DNA from: an uncultured Rickettsiales bacterium
Lineage (GTDB): Bacteria; Pseudomonadota; Alphaproteobacteria; Rickettsiales; 21-14-0-20-44-7
Reading direction: 5' to 3'
Length of the DNA: 64,000 nt
Assembly: GCA_964545245.1 (NCBI GenBank)
Contig: CAZJFC010000002.1
Coordinates: 1,119 to 65,118 of the forward strand
The position numbers and the translations under genes were made by a program. Shown here in pieces: positions 508 through 64,000 of the stretch (its first letter is position 1; each line of letters opens with the position of its first letter). Under the pieces are notes generated by a model. That model was not told the origin of the DNA, searched no databases, and saw only the letters and a list, made by a program, of their open reading frames with translations.

Positions 508-630
508 TCGTTAGTCATTGGTCATTAGGGCCACCTCACCCCAACCCTCTCCTCATAGGAGAGGGAGCTACAATTTACCCCTGAGGGGATGGGGGAGGTG
601 GTACTCGACTCACGACTCAAGCTACTACTT
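498..630. repeat. Composite palindromic element: heptad arm + G/C-rich nested hairpins + inverted heptad arm
   Basis: Left arm is AAGTCAT TAGTCGT TAGTCAT TGGTCAT TAG; the cobA stop codon is its second TAG-containing unit. Core is CCACCTCACCCCAACCCTCTCC-TCAT-AGGAGAGGG ... CCCCTGAGGGGATGGGGGAGGTGG. Right arm is TACTCGA CTCACGA CTCAAGC TACTACT. The same core words recur at 1946, 3197 and 8793. Confidence 0.8.
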
Positions 631-1945: not shown

Positions 1946-2141
1946 GAGTCATTAGAGAGTCGTAAGTCGTATGTCGTAAGGGAAAATTCAGAATTTCTAA
2001 TGTTCCGAAGTTCCATCTTTAGCACCTCACCCCAACCCTCTCCTGATAGGAGAGGGAGCTACGGTTCACCCCTCCTATCAGGAGGGAAATATCTCTTTCA
2101 CCCCTCCTATCAGGAGGGGATGGGGGAGGTGGCCTAATGAC
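1946..2141. repeat. Composite palindromic element (heptad arm + three G/C-rich hairpins)
   Basis: Arm is GAGTCAT TAGAGAG TCGTAAG TCGTATG TCGTAAG. It is followed by CACCTCACCCCAACCCTCTCCTGATAGGAGAGGG, CCCCTCCTATCAGGAGGG and CCCCTCCTATCAGGAGGGGATGGGGGAGGTGG. The outer ends GTCATTAG...CTAATGAC are inverted. Confidence 0.8.
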
Positions 2142-3196: not shown

Positions 3197-3332
3197 TAGT
3201 CGGTGGTCTGTGGTCGGTAGTCTGTAGCTTTTCCACCTCCCCCATCCCCTCCTGATAGGAGGGGAGAATTATAACTCCCTCTCCTATCAGGAGAGGGTTG
3301 GGGTGAGTGGGGGTAAGAAACTGACACTCATG
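3197..3332. repeat. Composite palindromic element
   Basis: Arm is TAGTCGG TGGTCTG TGGTCGG TAGTCTG TAG. It is followed by CCACCTCCCCCATCCCCTCCTGATAGGAGGGG and CCCTCTCCTATCAGGAGAGGGTTGGGGTGAG, then a GACACTCA-type tail. Confidence 0.8.
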
Positions 3333-4584: not shown

Positions 4585-5187
4585 ATGCAAAAACCATTTG
4601 AAAAAATAACCCCGGATTCTGACCCCTTCGCAATCTTTACGGAATGGTACGGCGCGGCGCAGAAAACCGTGAAAGAGCCGACCGCCTTTAACCTTGCCAC
4701 GGTGGGGCGTGACGGCAGGCCGTCATCGCGCATTGTGCTGCTAAAAAATTTCGATCCGCGGGGGTTTGTATTTTATACCAATTCGCAAAGCAAGAAAGGT
4801 GCTGCTATCGCCAAAAACCAGAATGTGGCGCTGAACTTCTTCTGGGCTGACCTGCAAAAGCAGATACGCATTGAAGGCGTGACTGAAAAAGTGGAAGGCG
4901 CGGAGGCTGACGGATATTATAACAGCCGCGAGCTGGGTAAAAGAATCGGCGCATGGGCGAGTTTGCAGTCGGAGATCCTGCCGAAGCGGGAGGATCTGTT
5001 CAGGCGGATCCAGGACTTTATGGAAAAATTCGGCGATAACCCGCCTCGCCCGCCGCACTGGCATGGCTACCGCGTGAAGCCGGATTATTTCGAGTTCTGG
5101 CAGGAGGGCGAGTTCCGCCTTCATGAACGTGATGTTTTCGAGCGCAGGAAGGATGGTTCGTGGGCGCATTATAAGTTGTATCCATAA
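4585..5187 (+). CDS. pdxH: Pyridoxamine 5'-phosphate oxidase
   Basis: RIVLLKNFDPRGFVFYTNSQSKKG, IRIEG, and the C-terminal HWHGYRVKPDYFEFWQEGEFRLHERDVF are classical PdxH motifs. Confidence 0.9.
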   Translation: MQKPFEKITPDSDPFAIFTEWYGAAQKTVKEPTAFNLATVGRDGRPSSRIVLLKNFDPRGFVFYTNSQSKKGAAIAKNQNVALNFFWADLQKQIRIEGVTEKVEGAEADGYYNSRELGKRIGAWASLQSEILPKREDLFRRIQDFMEKFGDNPPRPPHWHGYRVKPDYFEFWQEGEFRLHERDVFERRKDGSWAHYKLYP

Positions 5188-5191
5188 AAGT

Positions 5192-5325
5192 TAGTCGCTG
5201 GTCTCTGGTCACTGGTCGCTAGCGAGTAGTCAGGTTGGAGCGAGCGAGGCAGGAGGCCGAGCCAGTCCTGAGCGTGCCGGAGGCACAGCCCATCGGAGGC
5301 GCAGGAGCGCCGCACGGGGGCAAAA
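5192..5325. repeat. Heptad arm plus multi-hairpin repeat (family copy A)
   Basis: Arm is TAGTCGC TGGTCTC TGGTCAC TGGTCGC TAGCGAG TAGTCAG. It is followed by GCGAGGCAGGAGGCCGAGCCAG and GAGCGTGCCGGAGGCACAGCCCATCGGAGGCGCAGGAGCGCCGCACGGGGGCAAAA. An inverted copy lies at 10815-10900 and a truncated copy at 63962-64000. Confidence 0.8.
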
Positions 5326-5371
5326 TAATAATTCAGTTGCCCGCAAGCGGGGGTTGCGATAAAACACCAGA

Positions 5372-6892
5372 ATGGTGGCGCATATTACAACCGTTGCGTT
5401 TGAAGGGCTTTCGGTCACGCAGATTGATGTTCAGGTACAGATTTCACCGGGTTTGCCGGCTTTCATAATTGTCGGGCTTGCCGATAAGGCCGTCGCGGAA
5501 AGCAAGGAACGCGTGCGTGCCGCGCTTTCGGCGATTGGCCTTGCGCTTCCCGCTAAACGTGTGGTGGTGAACCTTGCGCCGGCGGATATCATCAAAATCG
5601 GCAGCCATTACGATTTGCCGATCGCGATCGGCCTGCTGGTCGCCATGAAAATTATCCCGCAGGACGCGGCGGAGGAATTCTTCTGCATGGGCGAGTTGGG
5701 GCTTGATGGTAAAATCCTCCCTGTAAGCGGTGTTCTGCCCGCGAGCATTGAGGCGAAGGCAACCGGGAAAGGCATCATCTGCCCGGAAGCCTGCGGCCCG
5801 GAGGCGGCATGGGCGGGGGAGCTGGACATCCTTGCGGCGCCGGGGCTGGTTTCGCTCATCAACCATTTCAAGGGCAATGAGGTGATGAAACGCCCACAGG
5901 TCAAGGTGAGGGAGTCGGCAAAAAAACATGCCTGTTTGCGTGACATCAAGGGGCAGGAAAACGCGAAACGCGCGCTCGAAATCGCGGCGGCGGGCGGGCA
6001 TAATATCCTGATGCTTGGCCCGCCGGGCGCGGGGAAGTCAATGCTTTCATCGCGGCTTATCGGGCTGCTGCCGCCGCTTTCCGCCGAGGAAATACTGGAG
6101 GTGAGCATAATCAATTCCATCGCCGGGAAAATTTCCGATACCGGCCTCACGGCGGAGCGCCCATACCGTGACCCGCACCATTCAACCTCGATGGCGGCGC
6201 TGGTTGGTGGCGGCAAACGGGCTTATCCGGGCGAGATTTCCCTTGCCCATAAGGGAGTGCTGTTCCTCGACGAATTGCCGGAATTTAACCGTGATGTGCT
6301 GGAATCCCTCCGCCAGCCGATGGAGGCCGGGAACGTAACCATCGCCCGTGCGAACACTCATGTGACCTATCCAGCAAGGTTCCAGCTTGTTGCAGCGATG
6401 AACCCGTGCCGCTGCGGCTACCTTGACGATGCGGGCAGGGCTTGCGGCAAAGCGCCGAGATGCGGTAGTGATTACCAGTCGAAAATTTCCGGCCCGTTAT
6501 ATGACAGGATCGACTTGTTCATTGACGTACCCGCGCTCACCCCGCAGGATATGATGCGCGAAGGCAATGAAGGCGAGCCGACAAGCCTTATCGCAAAACG
6601 CGTGGCGAAAGCCCGTGAGGCGCAGAAACAAAGGTATCATAACGACAATATGAAATATTTCACCAATGCGGAAGTTGACGGGGAATATCTGGAAAAAGTC
6701 GCCACGCCGGACGGGGATGGCAAAAAACTCCTGATGCAGGCAGTGGAGAATTTCGGCATCTCCATGCGCGGATATAACCGTATCCTGCGGGTTGCACGCA
6801 CCATCGCTGACCTTGAAGGAGCCGGGCAGATTGCAAAAAAACATGTCGCCGAGGCGATTTCATACCGGCAAAAAGCCTATGGGCAGGGCTAG
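5372..6892 (+). CDS. comM: YifB/ComM family Mg-chelatase-like ATPase
   Basis: 506 aa. It has an N-terminal Lon-protease-like domain, Walker A GPPGAGKS, LFLDELPEF, and a Cys cluster NPCRCGY...CGKAPRC. Confidence 0.9.
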   Translation: MVAHITTVAFEGLSVTQIDVQVQISPGLPAFIIVGLADKAVAESKERVRAALSAIGLALPAKRVVVNLAPADIIKIGSHYDLPIAIGLLVAMKIIPQDAAEEFFCMGELGLDGKILPVSGVLPASIEAKATGKGIICPEACGPEAAWAGELDILAAPGLVSLINHFKGNEVMKRPQVKVRESAKKHACLRDIKGQENAKRALEIAAAGGHNILMLGPPGAGKSMLSSRLIGLLPPLSAEEILEVSIINSIAGKISDTGLTAERPYRDPHHSTSMAALVGGGKRAYPGEISLAHKGVLFLDELPEFNRDVLESLRQPMEAGNVTIARANTHVTYPARFQLVAAMNPCRCGYLDDAGRACGKAPRCGSDYQSKISGPLYDRIDLFIDVPALTPQDMMREGNEGEPTSLIAKRVAKAREAQKQRYHNDNMKYFTNAEVDGEYLEKVATPDGDGKKLLMQAVENFGISMRGYNRILRVARTIADLEGAGQIAKKHVAEAISYRQKAYGQG

Positions 6893-8792: not shown

Positions 8793-8995
8793 CGTAAGTC
8801 ATAAGTCGTATGTCGTAAGTGACCACCCCCCTTCCGTCCCCCCTGATAGGGGGGAGAATCGAGGTTCCCTCTCCTATGAGGAGAGGGTTGGGGTGAGGTG
8901 CCGGGAGAGTGGGAGTGACAGTGTCAGTGGGAGAAAAACTGACACTCACACTGCCACTACAGCGCCTCCCTTCCGTCCCCCCTGATAGGGGGAAG
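8793..8995. repeat. Composite palindromic element (largest copy)
   Basis: Arm is CGTAAGT CATAAGT CGTATGT CGTAAGT. It is followed by CCCCCCTGATAGGGGGG, CCCTCTCCTATGAGGAGAGGGTTGGGGTGAGGTG, the inverted GAGTGACAGTGTCAGTGGG/CTGACACTCACACTGCCACT pair, and a second CCCCCCTGATAGGGGG hairpin. Confidence 0.8.
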
Positions 8996-9020
8996 ACAAA
9001 ATGATGGTGGTTTAAATAAC

Positions 9021-9743: not shown

Positions 9744-10769
9744 TTATTCCTCAACCGTTACGCGGTTGCGGCCATTGGTTTTGGCAAAATATAGCGCTTT
9801 ATCCGCGCGTTCAATGATATTTTCAACGCTGTCGCGTATGGTATGCATGGCCGTTACGCCGACGGAGACGGTTATCTGGCCGAGGCTTTCGCCGGTATCC
9901 TTGCGTTTCAGCTCCCTGGTGGAGATGGCCTTGCGGATGGTTTCGGCTACAATCTCGCCACCTTTGAGCGGGGTTTCCGGCAGGATGATGGCAAACTCCT
10001 CGCCGCCGTAACGCGCAACCATATCGCGGCCTTTGATCACTTCCTTCATCGCCTGCGCGACGATTTTAAGCACCTGGTCGCCGAGCAAATGGCCGAATGA
10101 ATCGTTGAATTTCTTGAAATGGTCGACGTCAACCATCAGCAGGCAGAATTGCTTGCCTTCCTTACGCGAGATTTTCAGCGTTTCTTCAAGGCGCTCGTCA
10201 AACGCCTTGCGGTTGGAAATTCCGGTTAGCGCGTCCATGCTGGCCTGTGCCGAGGCATGTTCTAGATTGACTTTCAGGCTCTCAACCTCAAGTTTGGATT
10301 CAGAAAGTTTCTTCTGGAGGTTCTCGCCTTTCTGCTGAAGCTCAACGGTTTTGCTGACCAGTTTTGAGATAACTTTAGAAACATCGCTATTTTCAGCGGA
10401 TTCGAGGTCTTTGCTGAATTCGGCGAGGTCTTTGTTATAGCTTTGCGTATCACCGCTGGAGGATTCAATTGTTTTGAGCACATTGCTCATGATCTCCTTA
10501 ATCTTCGAGCCGGTCTCAACCACTATGCGCGAATCGGTTTCCTTCAGGATGTGGTTGGAATAGATATCGCGGCTGAGGTCATGCGTAAATTCTTTTTTCT
10601 CGCTGATGGTTTTATCAATCGTGTCCTTGAGCTTTTTATTGCCGCCGCGGACATATTCAAACCAGATGTAATAATTCTCCGGCAGCATGGAGACGTTATT
10701 CTCCTGCATCAGCTTAATCGCCGCATTGCTCCATGACTGGATGATCTTCTTTTCCGCTTCCGGGCCCAT
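9744..10769 (-). CDS. Diguanylate cyclase (GGDEF) with an N-terminal coiled-coil/sensor region
   Basis: DALTGISNRKAF, DVDHFKKFND and the active site RYGGEEFAIILPET. Confidence 0.85.
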   Translation of the reverse strand: MGPEAEKKIIQSWSNAAIKLMQENNVSMLPENYYIWFEYVRGGNKKLKDTIDKTISEKKEFTHDLSRDIYSNHILKETDSRIVVETGSKIKEIMSNVLKTIESSSGDTQSYNKDLAEFSKDLESAENSDVSKVISKLVSKTVELQQKGENLQKKLSESKLEVESLKVNLEHASAQASMDALTGISNRKAFDERLEETLKISRKEGKQFCLLMVDVDHFKKFNDSFGHLLGDQVLKIVAQAMKEVIKGRDMVARYGGEEFAIILPETPLKGGEIVAETIRKAISTRELKRKDTGESLGQITVSVGVTAMHTIRDSVENIIERADKALYFAKTNGRNRVTVEE

Positions 10770-10814
10770 GCGGCTTTTTTAACCTAAACCCCTTAAGTTT
10801 CAAGTGGGGGAATT

Positions 10815-10925
10815 GTTTTTTTGCCCCCGTGCGGCGCTACTGCGCCTCCGATGGGCTGTGCCTCCGGCACGCTCAAGGCTGGGCCGTTCTCCTGAACGGC
10901 TACTAGCCACAATCCACTAGTATGG
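10815..10925. repeat. Multi-hairpin repeat (family copy B, inverted relative to copy A) plus a short CTAGT-type arm
   Basis: The reverse complement reads GCCGTTCAGGAGAACGGCCCAGCCTTGAGCGTGCCGGAGGCACAGCCCATCGGAGGCGCAGTAGCGCCGCACGGGGGCAAAAAA. Confidence 0.8.
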
Positions 10926-46060: not shown

Positions 46061-47098
46061 TTAAAACCCATAATGTTCTAGCCAACGCACGTCACTTTCG
46101 AAAAACTGGCGTAAGTCAGGGATGTTATATTTCAACATTGCCATGCGTTCGATGCCTGCGCCGAATGCAAAACCTGAATATTCTTCCGGGTCGATTCCCA
46201 CGTTTTTAAGCACGTTAGGGTGAACCATTCCCGCGCCCATGATTTCCAGCCACTTGCTATTCTCCCACTCAATATCAACCTCCGCGGAAGGTTCGGTGAA
46301 CGGGAAGTAAGAAGGGCGCAGGCGCATCTTGCGCTCGCCGAAGAACTGGGTGATGAATTCGTTGAGAGTCCATTTCAAATGGCCGAAATTCACGTTCTTA
46401 TCGATATAAAGCGCCTCAACCTGATGGAACATCGGGGTGTGCGTCATGTCGGAATCGGAACGGTAGGTGCGCCCCATCGAGAAAATACGGAATGGAGGTT
46501 TACCGTTTTCCATAGTGCGGATCTGCACCGGCGAAGTATGCGTACGCAGGACGCGGAGTACGCCTGCACCCCCCTCTTTCCCCCCTATTAGGGGGGATGA
46601 AAGGGGGGTGGCCGGCGGCAGATAAAACGTATCATGCATCTGGCGGGCAGGGTGGCTTTCCGGGATGTTCAGCGCAGTGAAGTTGTGGTAATCATCCTCG
46701 ATATTCGGGCCATCCTTGAATTCAAATCCAAGGCTGCCCAGAATTTCCGCGATCTCACTCTGAACCTGTGATATCGGGTGGATAGAGCCTTTGCGCTCCG
46801 GGCGTACGGGAAGGGTGACGTCCACCTTCTCATTCACCAGTTTTGCATTGATTTCGGCAATTTCCAGTTCGGCTTTCTTTGACTCGATAACAGATTCAAG
46901 CGCCTGCTTCACCTCATTCACCTCTGCGCCAAAGGCTTTTTTTTCTTCCGGCGGGAGCAAGCCTATTTTGGACATTTCGGCGGTGAGCAAACCTTTCTTG
47001 CCAAGATATTTCACGCGCAGATCATCAAGCACGCGCAGATTACCAGCTTTGCTGATCTCGTTATTCGCTTCGGTTTTTATATTTGCAAGTGCGCTCAT
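46061..47098 (-). CDS. pheS: Phenylalanine--tRNA ligase alpha subunit (carries an in-frame repeat insertion)
   Basis: HPARQMHDTFY...LRTHTSPVQIRTM, FRIFSMGRTYRSD and GAGMVHPNVL. Confidence 0.92.
   Translation of the reverse strand: MSALANIKTEANNEISKAGNLRVLDDLRVKYLGKKGLLTAEMSKIGLLPPEEKKAFGAEVNEVKQALESVIESKKAELEIAEINAKLVNEKVDVTLPVRPERKGSIHPISQVQSEIAEILGSLGFEFKDGPNIEDDYHNFTALNIPESHPARQMHDTFYLPPATPLSSPLIGGKEGGAGVLRVLRTHTSPVQIRTMENGKPPFRIFSMGRTYRSDSDMTHTPMFHQVEALYIDKNVNFGHLKWTLNEFITQFFGERKMRLRPSYFPFTEPSAEVDIEWENSKWLEIMGAGMVHPNVLKNVGIDPEEYSGFAFGAGIERMAMLKYNIPDLRQFFESDVRWLEHYGF
46560..46620. repeat. G/C-rich palindromic element inside the pheS coding sequence
   Basis: CACCCCCCTCTTTCCCCCCTATTAGGGGGGATGAAAGGGGGGTG. 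It is translated as ATPLSSPLIGGKEGGAG between the conserved DTFY and LRTHTSP blocks. Confidence 0.75.
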
Positions 47099-47100
47099 TT

Positions 47101-47156
47101 CTAGTCCCTGGTCTCTAGTCGCTAGCTAGCAGCCAGTGACTAGCGACTATTGACTC
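47101..47156. repeat. Stand-alone heptad-arm dyad (no G/C core) between rplT and pheS
   Basis: CTAGTCC CTGGTCT CTAGTCG CTAGCTA | GCAGCCA GTGACTA GCGACTA TTGACTC. The two halves are imperfect inverted repeats around GCTAGCTAGC. Confidence 0.75.
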
Positions 47157-47899: not shown

Positions 47900-47927
47900 C
47901 TAAACGCTAAACTCTAAACTCTCGCCA
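47900..47927. repeat. Heptad arm (CTAAACN type), right member of the inverted pair, directly upstream of hisS
   Basis: CTAAACG CTAAACT CTAAACT CTCGCCA, the complement of the AGTTTAG units at 47765. Confidence 0.65.
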
Positions 47928-57574: not shown

Positions 57575-58617
57575 GCTTTGCCGATAACCTTGATTTCCGG
57601 CTCAAGTTTTATACCTGACCTTTCAAATACACGTTTCTGAATTTCAAGGATAAGGTTCTCAAGGTCGGAAGCTGTTGCAGTGCCGGTATTGATAATAAAA
57701 TTGCAGTGCTTTTCGGAAACCTGCGCGCCGCCGATTGTAAACCCACGCAATCCTGCTGCATCTATGAGCTGCCAGGCTTTTAACCCTCCCCCATCCCCTC
57801 CCTCAGGGAGGGGAGAAGAAAGGGATTTCACTCCCTCAGGGAGGGGGAAGTTTAAGCCTCCCACCGCTTGCGGGGGGAGGTTGGAGGGGGGGGCGGGGTT
57901 TTTGAACGTGCTGCCCCCGGTGCGGGTGCGAATTGGCTGTGACTCCTCCCGCGCGGTTTTGATCTCATTCATTTTTGCATAAATCGCGGTAGGTTCCCCC
58001 GGTTCACCGCGCAGCACCGCTCCGGTCACGATGTAATCATCCCCCGCAAGGAGAGCGGATTTGCGGTAAGAGAATTTGAGGTCATCATTGCTTAGGGTTT
58101 TAACATTGCCGCTAAAGTCAACCACCGTAGCTTCCACCAGAACATCCTTGGTTTCCTTGCCATACGCGCCGCCGTTCATCTTCACTGCGCCGCCGATCGT
58201 GCCGGGAATCCCCACCAGGAATTCCAGCCCGGCAATTCCGTTTTCCGCGGCGAAAGTTGCAACATTTACGTCAAGCGCGGCGGCGCCCACTTTAATAGTT
58301 GCCGGGTTTAAAGACTCCGAAACTCCGAAACTCCGAAACTCCGAAACTTCTACCTTGGCAAATTCCCTCCCCAGCTTGATTACCACGCCCTCAATCCCGC
58401 CATCGCGGATGATGATATTCGAGCCGACGCCAAGCACCGTAACCGGGATATCCTCCGGTTTATTTTTCAAAAAATGCACAAGGTCATCAATATCGGCGGG
58501 CTTGAACAGCACCTCGGCAGGGCCGCCCACGCGGAACCAGTTGGTTTTGCTGAGGTCGGCGTTTTCAGTATAACGCCCACGGATTTGTGGGAGGTTATTA
58601 AGCAACTTTATTACCAA
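57571..58617 (-). CDS. murB: UDP-N-acetylenolpyruvoylglucosamine reductase (carries two in-frame repeat insertions)
   Basis: [44 protein letters not shown] and [11 protein letters not shown]. The start is uncertain: TTG at 58617 or 58605, overlapping the murC end. The ORF-track ATG at 58824 lies deep inside murC. Confidence 0.85.
57783..57897. repeat. G/C-rich multi-hairpin element inside the murB coding sequence
   Basis: CCCCTCCCTCAGGGAGGGG, CTCCCTCAGGGAGGGGG and CCTCCCACCGCTTGCGGGGGGAGG. It is translated as [38 protein letters not shown] between the conserved FKNP and AWQLID blocks. Confidence 0.75.
58314..58349. repeat. Octanucleotide tandem repeat ACTCCGAA x4.5 inside the murB coding sequence
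   Basis: Perfect copies lie at 58314, 58322, 58330 and 58338, with a partial copy at 58346. The minus strand GAGTTTCG x4 encodes [13 protein letters not shown]. Confidence 0.9.
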
Positions 58618-63734: not shown

Positions 63735-64000
63735 ATTCATTGCGAGGCAGGGGCCGAGCCAGCTCTCAACCCAATTTATGTCATTCCGGAATTTTTACCA
63801 GCAGGGAAAAATATCCGGAATCCACAACATTGGGGTTTCGGCAAAAAGTCAGGAGACTTTTTGCGTAATAAAATATCTCCTGACATTTTATTACTGGATC
63901 CCCGTGCAAAAAATTCTTCTGAATTTTTTCACGAGGATGACGATGGGGGGAAAATTGAGAAGCTGTTCAGGAGAACGGCTCAGCCCTGAGCGTGCCGGAG
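63735..64000. repeat. Cluster of repeat modules, truncated by the window end
   Basis: GCGAGGCAGGGGCCGAGCCAG (compare 5244), the hairpin TCATTCCGGAAT...ATATCCGGAATCC, and from 63962 GCTGTTCAGGAGAACGGCTCAGCCCTGAGCGTGCCGGAG, which is the start of the copy A/B family. Confidence 0.65.

Follow-up and report, generated by a model that had tools for sequence, protein, structure and literature searches.

An in-frame G/C-rich palindromic repeat with triplex motifs in the murB gene of an uncultured Rickettsiales bacterium

The 64,000-nucleotide (nt) stretch analyzed here (contig CAZJFC010000002.1 of assembly GCA_964545245.1, from an uncultured Rickettsiales bacterium; the whole stretch is referred to as the window) contains a murB gene, encoding UDP-N-acetylenolpyruvoylglucosamine reductase, that carries a G/C-rich palindromic repeat in frame. 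The repeat belongs to a family that is dispersed in intergenic spacers of the window and is also found in frame in pheS, and its modules have the architecture of intrastrand triplex motifs. The insert is probably a full-length member of this dispersed family that was placed in the native murB and is tolerated as a passenger in a loop. A first-pass annotation had described a multi-hairpin repeat in murB across which the open reading frame (ORF) is maintained, and both the sequence and the minus-strand ORF read as it claimed; the 35 to 38 added residues that it gave agree with the 35 residues found to be extra relative to Brucella ovis MurB (PDB 9dtk).

The murB insert and its host gene

Orthologue comparison places a 105-nt insert, coding for 35 residues, between FKNPA and GLKAW, with limits that C and G runs leave uncertain by ~3 nt. 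Its G+C content is 65%, versus 54% for the murB coding sequence (CDS). The repeat-bearing segment (57783-57897) contains CCCCTCCCTCAGGGAGGGG and related palindromes, and reads in order GC TTTTAACCCTCCCCCAT CCCCTCCC TCA GGGAGGGG AGAAGAAAGGGATTTCA CTCCC TCA GGGAG GGGGAAGTTTAAG CCTCCC ACCGCTTGCGG GGGGAGG TTGGAGGGGGGGGCGGGG. The palindromic 17-mer CCCTCCCTCAGGGAGGG had two matches per strand with up to two mismatches, versus 0.00 in 100 shuffles. The hairpin of the first triplex motif (57784..57814) has a perfect 9-bp stem, and the single-strand fold of 57776-57905 comprises three hairpins closed by degenerate terminal arms (DNA, z = -2.7; RNA, -65 kcal/mol, z = -4.1). Across the insert, the coding strand has a single open frame out of three, so an insertion in either other phase would truncate the enzyme. 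Of the 35 encoded residues, 24 are P, G, L, or S. An antisense terminator on the plus strand, formed by a hairpin and the native T5 run, was considered and dropped, since the consensus scan calls none.

The murB product is identical, letter for letter, to a database protein (P0001) and contains the Pfam domains FAD_binding_4 and MurB_C. Its top PDB match in phmmer was 9dtk (E=5e-76), and a Foldseek search with its AlphaFold2 (AF2) model returned MurB structures as all of the first 18 matches. The model, computed from a 120-sequence MurB alignment, had a mean predicted local distance difference test score (pLDDT) of 89.7 and a predicted template modeling score (pTM) of 0.85. Only two stretches were weak: residues 91-100 (pLDDT 56) and residues 241-270 (61, 55, and 46 per successive ten), which gives the insert a range of 46-61. 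Residues R181, S232, and E337 were invariant among the 120 closest MurB homologues (≤75% identity over conserved columns) and pair in the alignment with E. coli MurB R159, S229, and E325, which we take to be the catalytic residues. Domain content, fold, and catalytic Arg/Ser/Glu are those of a MurB enzyme. The nearest named relatives were Algihabitans and Fodinicurvata (~55% identity), and Rickettsia was absent from the matches. The gene order mnmE, methyltransferase, murC, murB, ilvB-like thiamine pyrophosphate enzyme, ubiD, prfA, and hisS is shared with GCA_013288575.1 and GCA_043757405.1. With its synteny and catalytic residues conserved, an open frame, and an AF2 model that is confident outside the repeat-derived loops, this murB looks like a functional native copy and is predicted to be intact.

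A repeat family in the window

Repeat finding, direct reading, and a module hidden Markov model (HMM) located the family at six places only in the window (Table 1), four of them intergenic and two in frame (pheS and murB). The elements are 78-115 nt long with 58-67% G+C and share one layout: an arm (CCACCTC[A/C]CCCA or CACCCCCCT) leads into a C-rich hairpin, and after a spacer come one or two more hairpins and then the arm again, inverted. The terminal inverted arms read CCACCTC[A/C]CCCA ... TGGGG[G/T]GAGGTGG, and copies A, B, C, D, and F each have two modules in inverted orientation.

Table 1. Positions of murB, its insert, and the repeats found in the window
Feature	Position	Strand	Location or basis
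Copy A, two inverted triplex-motif modules	532..612		Intergenic
Copy B, three hairpins, collinear with the murB insert	2022..2135		Intergenic
Copy C, two inverted modules	3233..3310		Intergenic
Copy D (8823-8901) and solo module (8965-8996)	8823..8996		Intergenic
Element E, single hairpin in pheS (CDS 46061..47098, -)	46565..46613	-	Module HMM, scan
Element F, repeat inside murB	~57783-57897	-	Direct reading, module HMM
105-nt in-frame insert, residues 239-273 of P0001	57787..57891	-	Orthologue comparison
Triplex motif 1, TCCCCTCCC tga GGGAGGGGA t GGGGGAGGG	57784..57814	-	ITxF-like scan
Central hairpin, CACTCCC TCA GGGAGGG	57829..57845		Counterpart of copy B middle hairpin
Triplex motif 2, inverted versus motif 1, CCTCCCACC gcttgc GGGGGGAGG tt GGAGGGGGG	57857..57891	+	ITxF-like scan
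murB, UDP-N-acetylenolpyruvoylglucosamine reductase, 344 residues	57571..58605	-	ORF list, PDB phmmer, Pfam, AF2/Foldseek, synteny
Unrelated ~85-nt repeat (89-91% identity)	5250-5334; 10810-10894; 63958-64000 (cut by window end)	+; -; +	

The murB insert is collinear with the minus strand of 2016-2140, which includes copy B: the global alignment score was 30, versus -18.6 ± 5.4 (maximum, -1) in 500 shuffles, that is, ~9 standard deviations above them. In addition, the left module of the murB copy is 81% identical over 42 nt to copy C (3227-3268). The statement in the first-pass annotation that the murB palindromes are of the same kind as those in the intergenic spacers is borne out by these two alignments. 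Two syntenic relatives contained no triplex motifs in ~20 kb each, versus 11 in the 64-kb window; therefore, the family appears to have expanded in the window lineage. When the whole window was scanned with Rfam, only a tRNA scored above the gathering threshold.

The pheS element has the arms CACCCCCCT / AGGGGGGTG and contains two overlapping triplex motifs. It encodes TPLSSPLIGGKEGGAG, and at this site the window PheS exceeds its E. coli, P. aeruginosa, and Acinetobacter counterparts by 18 residues; the Thermus protein has a comparably long loop at that position. Relative to the hairpin center, the pheS and murB inserts are read in the same frame. The peptide SPLxGGxEGG is encoded in pheS (SPLIGGKEGG), in murB, and in the murB insert of a relative described below (L001; SPLSGGIEGG), which confirms the earlier remark that the pheS and murB insertions are read in the same element frame. 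Directly upstream of the pheS start, at 47102-47149, lies a 48-nt imperfect palindrome, TAGTCCCTGGTCTCTAGTCGCTAGCTAGCAGCCAGTGACTAGCGACTA, with heptamer-like units.

Heptamer tandem runs were seen at 499-528, 1958-1980, 3197-3227, 5194-5217, 8793-8820, and 47900-47922, and the heptamers AGTCATT, AGTCGTA, TAGTCGG, GTCACTG, CGTAAGT, and CTAAACT directly flank the intergenic pairs of triplex motifs. Copy A is flanked by such runs on either side, inverted relative to each other, and the composite repeat as a whole therefore extends beyond its G/C-rich core. The runs presumably resemble the STRR heptamer repeats of cyanobacteria.

Module architecture

In the ITxF definition, a G/C-rich intrastrand triplex motif consists of a Y-stem, a complementary R-stem, and a mirror R third strand; the stems measure 6-15 nt and the loops 1-6 nt, and no more than one mismatch is allowed (PMC4666352). 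Our own re-implementation of ITxF, scanning for class-II motifs with stems of ≥7 nt, ≤1 mismatch, and loops of 1-6 nt, identified 11 motifs in the window versus a mean of 0.2 in 30 block shuffles. All 11 lie inside copies A to F, the modules of which conform to the definition; the two motifs in murB are inverted, and the two in pheS overlap. The alpha module of the window, CCCTCTCC-tatga-GGAGAGGG-ttg-GGGTGAGG, is essentially one stem pair and one loop base apart from the type-A TMECO of E. coli, CCCTCTCCC-ttga-GGGAGAGGG-tta-GGGTGAGGG (PMC4666352). The general TMECO pattern is CCCTCNCCC N3-6 GGGNGAGGG N3 GGGNGAGGG (PMC4666352), and a variant of it with 8-nt stems matches copies A, B, and D, whereas neither the murB copy nor the pheS copy fits it. 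From its sequence, then, the element appears to be a member of the broader BoxC/PIT/TMECO class of triplex motifs rather than a strict TMECO.

Holder et al. (2015) reported 3,610 TMECO copies in 262 proteobacterial genomes, 23 of them in E. coli K-12, where they are always intergenic and include five inverted pairs (PMC4666352). TMECO showed no association with transposons, phages, or plasmids and no promoter or terminator activity, and was associated with local genomic instability; transposition machinery has not been demonstrated for the BoxC/PIT/TMECO class (PMC4666352). Earlier studies of BoxC and PIT, by Bachellier and by Hoyne/Maher, are known here as cited in that paper.

The arm word CTCACCCCAACCCTCTCC was found at at least 120 loci in 185,579 species genomes. 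Among the matches listed, the hosts were Proteobacteria, Bacteroidota, Planctomycetota, Chloroflexota, Cyanobacteria, Myxococcota, the candidate phyla radiation, and others, and almost every match read CCCTCACCCCAA-CCCTCTCCC-loop-GGGAGAGGG, which fits the strict TMECO form. This 18-mer and its downstream hairpin are nearly letter-identical across phyla, from Enterobacteria to Parcubacteria and Dehalococcoidia (L002-L121, among the matches listed), a spread that reaches far beyond the 262 proteobacterial genomes reported in 2015. A BLASTN search of E. coli genomes with copy B gave no match, the query probably being too short or masked.

The insertion site and its recurrence

Where B. ovis MurB runs uninterrupted (FKNPE|GTSAWKEID), the window protein has its 35 additional residues (226-260 of the search query). 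NP and KAW are separated by 3 residues in 88 of the 120 closest homologues, by 8 in 23, and by 16 in 2; a 38-residue spacer is present only in the window protein, and the insert is absent from 117 of the 120. When 1.84 billion representatives were searched exhaustively with HMMER, almost all of the best 150 matches were split in two, with the first stretch ending at query positions 237-242. The orthologue alignment, which the first-pass annotation had proposed as a check, thus delimited the insert, and an ancestral conserved MurB loop is ruled out by the orthologue spacers together with the nucleotide similarity to the intergenic copies.

The site varies in length in nature. At the same alignment position, 27-29 residues are naturally present in E. 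coli MurB, and unrelated inserts of 11-33 residues occupy it in ~14 of 72 diverse representatives with a parsable motif. The remark in the first-pass annotation that the GSTFKNP block and the next one are only a few residues apart is correct for MurB proteins of the window type but not for those of the E. coli type, and the short linker is not unusually constrained, given the E. coli segment and the unrelated inserts of other lineages. The murB site is a permissive loop. Empty sites read AACCCACCCGGTGAAAAAGCC (L244; AAC CCA CCC GGT) and AATCCTGATGGGCTTAAAGCA (L246).

The same codon position is filled in the murB genes of two relatives: (i) in L001 (protein P0005), which reads AAAAACCCCGCG-AGCACAACC TCCCCCC TATCA GGGGGGA TTGAGGGGGGTGCT-CTCAAAGCC, and (ii) in L122 (P0027), which reads AAAAATCCC-ACCCCCCTCAATC TCCCCCC TAATA GGGGGGA TGTAAGGGGGGTG-CAAAAAGCG. 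Both inserts are single hairpins of 39 nt that add 13 residues each, and both score as a triplex motif. In a neighbor-joining tree of insert-free columns, P0001, P0005, and P0027 fall in three clades, each with closer relatives that lack an insert. Because of this separation, the site would have been filled by at least two independent events, and probably by three.

A second repeat-derived in-frame insert was observed in the window murB at 58314-58348 (residues ~87-98). It is a perfect tandem of (ACTCCGAA) x 4.4 that encodes 11 residues, adds ~12 residues to the loop after KLGREFA, and has a pLDDT of 56. Among the 120 closest relatives, 28 carry inserts in that loop (≥13 residues, where 12 are usual), and several of these inserts look palindromic or heptamer-like. 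The murB gene of L001 carries in this first loop, also in frame, a 48-nt perfect palindrome (positions 795-842 of L001), GTCATCTTGAGCGCAAGCGAAAGATCTTTCGCTTGCGCTCAAGATGAC, which encodes VILSASERSFACAQDD and is a different class of repeat in the same gene.

Metagenomes were scanned for the single-hairpin module CACCCCCCT N3-5 TCCCCCCT NNN AGGGGGGA, which was found at at least 120 loci on contigs with 34-68% G+C. In-frame cases were counted only where a spanning ORF was identified, and spanning ORFs in high-G+C contigs were left uncounted because long open frames arise there by chance. Copies lie in frame in two TnpB genes (in one, between the OrfB_IS605 and TNB domains), in PheT between the B3_4 and B5 domains, and in a purple-acid-type metallophosphatase, an RRXRR-HNH protein, urease alpha, and chorismate synthase. 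Depending on frame and orientation, the element-encoded peptides read SPLxGGxEGG or PPxxPPxRG(D/E). The urease (UreC) copy makes the protein only 5 residues longer than Klebsiella urease, and the chorismate synthase (AroC) copy gives no net gain; these two were dropped as clean insertions. In such cases the element takes up a variable loop, and not every copy amounts to a net insertion.

Several of the in-frame metagenomic matches look cyanobacterial, being low-G+C contigs with TnpB genes and, in one case, a HIP1 site. In four contigs (L161, L193, L200, and L226), one single-hairpin element, complete with its two arms, occupies an identical place in an alpha-2-macroglobulin-like gene (SPPSVPPxRGEERG), and the elements differ mainly in the loop, which suggests that this in-frame copy was retained across speciation. 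On contig L152 (G+C, 0.63), a large putative GAF/PP2C-type ORF apparently contains three copies of the peptide (LPPRRGEPEGG, SPLPPPRGEPEGGG, and LLSPLEGGGGGEP); because of the high G+C content, this ORF call is less certain.

Origin of the insert

In the explanation that we favor, one copy of the family would have been placed in the native murB directly after the GGSTFKNP strand with the catalytic serine. A family member consists of two inverted arm-plus-hairpin modules, sometimes with a third hairpin between them; within each module, a loop joins the C-rich stem to the G-rich one, and a short loop leads on to a mirror G-rich third strand. The insert would persist because it is a multiple of 3 nt long, is open in its frame, and lies in a length-tolerant surface loop. 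It is most likely translated as a disordered Pro/Gly/Leu/Ser-rich loop of 35 residues on an otherwise normal enzyme and would be a tolerated passenger, not a new functional domain. The copy may derive from another genomic copy, made during repair or when replication switched templates at non-B DNA, and the native C-run/GG sequence (AAC CCN ... GGN) may have seeded the event. Such copying is preferred over a transposase because a target duplication is not evident, a Pfam scan identified no transposase among 20 neighboring genes, and none is known for BoxC.

The features of the family also bear on other explanations. An actively mobile element, resembling a miniature inverted-repeat transposable element (MITE), a REPIN, or a Rickettsia palindromic element (RPE), could be moved in trans by a transposase encoded elsewhere and prefer targets like the murB FKNP site. 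It would account for the terminal inverted arms and multiple dispersed copies, for the same murB codon position being filled in three lineages, and for the lineage-specific abundance of the motifs, and the RPEs offer a precedent. Of the marks of a MITE, however, the 64 kb show only the inverted arms: no target-site duplication was evident when the three filled murB sites were compared with the empty ones, and no transposase was seen in the 20 genes scanned. TMECO, moreover, lacks transposon, phage, or plasmid association according to Holder et al. (PMC4666352), and the unrelated inserts present at the site in many lineages fit a tolerance filter equally well. We consider active mobility of this kind unlikely. 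More doubtful still is the wider idea that C/G-tract triplex modules are pan-bacterial tiny mobile or templated-copying elements that home to contexts like MurB AAC-CCN...GGN; if true, such modules would be a recurrent generator of loop insertions in MurB, PheS, PheT, urease, and TnpB.

Co-option of the insert, either as a loop beside the catalytic serine that modulates substrate access or partner binding or through mRNA hairpins that tune murB translation, would be in line with the position of the natural extra segment of type I MurB, with the well-kept hairpin stems and their predicted RNA stability, and with the orthologous in-frame copies kept in the alpha-2-macroglobulin-like gene of four related metagenomic contigs. 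It is nevertheless improbable, as the AF2 model has no confident structure in the insert, the peptide is of low complexity, and most close relatives lack it. An in-place origin, by slippage or template-switch expansion of the native C-run/G-run of NP-x-G with likeness to the intergenic repeats by convergence, could start from an empty site such as AAC CCA CCC GGT, a miniature C-run/G start, and C/G-tract hairpins with similar arms in unrelated phyla make convergence or a common mutational process conceivable. The insert, however, follows copy B throughout (arm, hairpin 1, spacer, hairpin 2, spacer, hairpin 3, arm), an order that local expansion is not expected to yield, and shares one closely similar module with copy C, which leaves this origin very improbable. 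We give slightly less credence again to a murB pseudogene or an assembly artifact in this metagenome-assembled genome. The contig is metagenome derived and only ~65 kb long, and repeats can misassemble; yet murB is continuous in a single frame through both flanks, the insert length is an exact multiple of three with no stop codon, the catalytic residues are invariant, the synteny is native, and two independent assemblies from other samples have the same kind of insert at the same codon.

Some points weigh against the insertion of a dispersed repeat of the triplex class as a tolerated loop. The murB copy has moderate identity to its intergenic counterparts, at 55-63% overall and 81% in one module. 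The strict TMECO pattern, with 9-nt stems, gave no match in the window as a regular expression, which follows from the one stem pair and one loop base by which the alpha module differs. The isolated single strand formed a stable triplex, but none was found in duplex DNA or in vivo (PMC4666352), so "triplex motif" names a sequence architecture and not a proven structure. The tree carries no support values, and the inserts of P0001 and P0005 may descend from a single old insertion, with partial deletions and losses since then. A second murB is possible elsewhere in the genome, the coverage here being one contig of ~65 kb. Translation of the insert and activity of the enzyme are predictions, and the route of arrival is proposed with neither a target-site duplication nor a donor seen.

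Comparison with known systems and significance

The window element and the BoxC/PIT/TMECO class share the order of C-stem, loop, G-stem, short loop, and mirror G-stem, a nearly identical alpha module, inverted pairs of ~80 nt (the pairing shown by copies A, B, C, D, and F), a strongly lineage-dependent abundance, and the lack of an associated mobility gene. However, the window stems are 7-9 nt, mostly 8 rather than 9; the window has the additional module subtypes CCCCTCC and TCCCCCC; and heptamer tandem runs flank the intergenic copies. Moreover, whereas TMECO is always intergenic in E. coli K-12, two of the six window loci lie in frame in essential genes. Among the papers searched, none reported in-frame coding copies of the BoxC/TMECO class.

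The first-pass annotation likened the insert to RPEs, a comparison that stands for the in-frame coding outcome but not for family membership, since the modules match BoxC/PIT/TMECO. In two papers that review the work of Ogata et al. (2000 and 2002) (PMC10969869 and PMC1779305), RPEs are described as palindromic repeats of 100-150 bp that are intergenic or in frame in coding genes, including Rickettsia pheT (RPE-7), and RPE-1 to RPE-10 are each defined by their own HMM families. The window family is likewise a dispersed palindromic repeat (78-115 nt; four intergenic and two genic loci) that enters housekeeping genes with an added peptide compatible with the fold of the host protein, and in both cases aminoacyl-tRNA synthetase genes were struck (pheT by RPE-7, pheS by the window element, and pheT by a metagenomic one). 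Nevertheless, by its MurB relatives the host is not a Rickettsia, and the window element has 58-67% G+C, C/G-tract triplex modules, and single-hairpin forms of ~39-49 nt. A match to the RPE families is unlikely because of this composition, and the module class also sets the element apart from the RPEs.

Elhai et al. (2008) reportedly described cyanobacterial small dispersed repeats (SDRs) or MITEs that are very short hairpin repeats, nested and located inside coding regions; SDRs would thus be alike in being very short hairpin repeats within genes. The extra segment of E. coli-type (type I) MurB occupies the same position in the fold and is of comparable size (27-29 versus 35 residues), but it is ordinary, structured, and conserved, has no repeat origin, and shows no sequence similarity to the insert.

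That palindromic repeats are tolerated in frame in surface loops is an established principle. The present case extends protein-coding palindromes, best known from Rickettsia, to the far more widespread BoxC/intrastrand-triplex class. The same loop of an essential drug-target enzyme would have been struck in at least two, and probably three, lineages, which offers a natural experiment on targeting versus tolerance and a way to study the spread of non-B DNA motifs. For annotation, such inserts lengthen proteins, create low-complexity loops, and may mimic frameshifts or pseudogenes.

Other repeats in the window

A repeat of ~85 nt, unrelated to the family, has three copies in the window (Table 1). 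The region 5180-5400 gave no Rfam match. Two of the copies are closely followed, on their own strand, by a gene, which encodes a ComM-like Mg-chelatase ATPase (5372-6892) in one case and a GGDEF protein (9744-10769) in the other, and the repeat could be a shared leader, a regulatory RNA, or another dispersed repeat.

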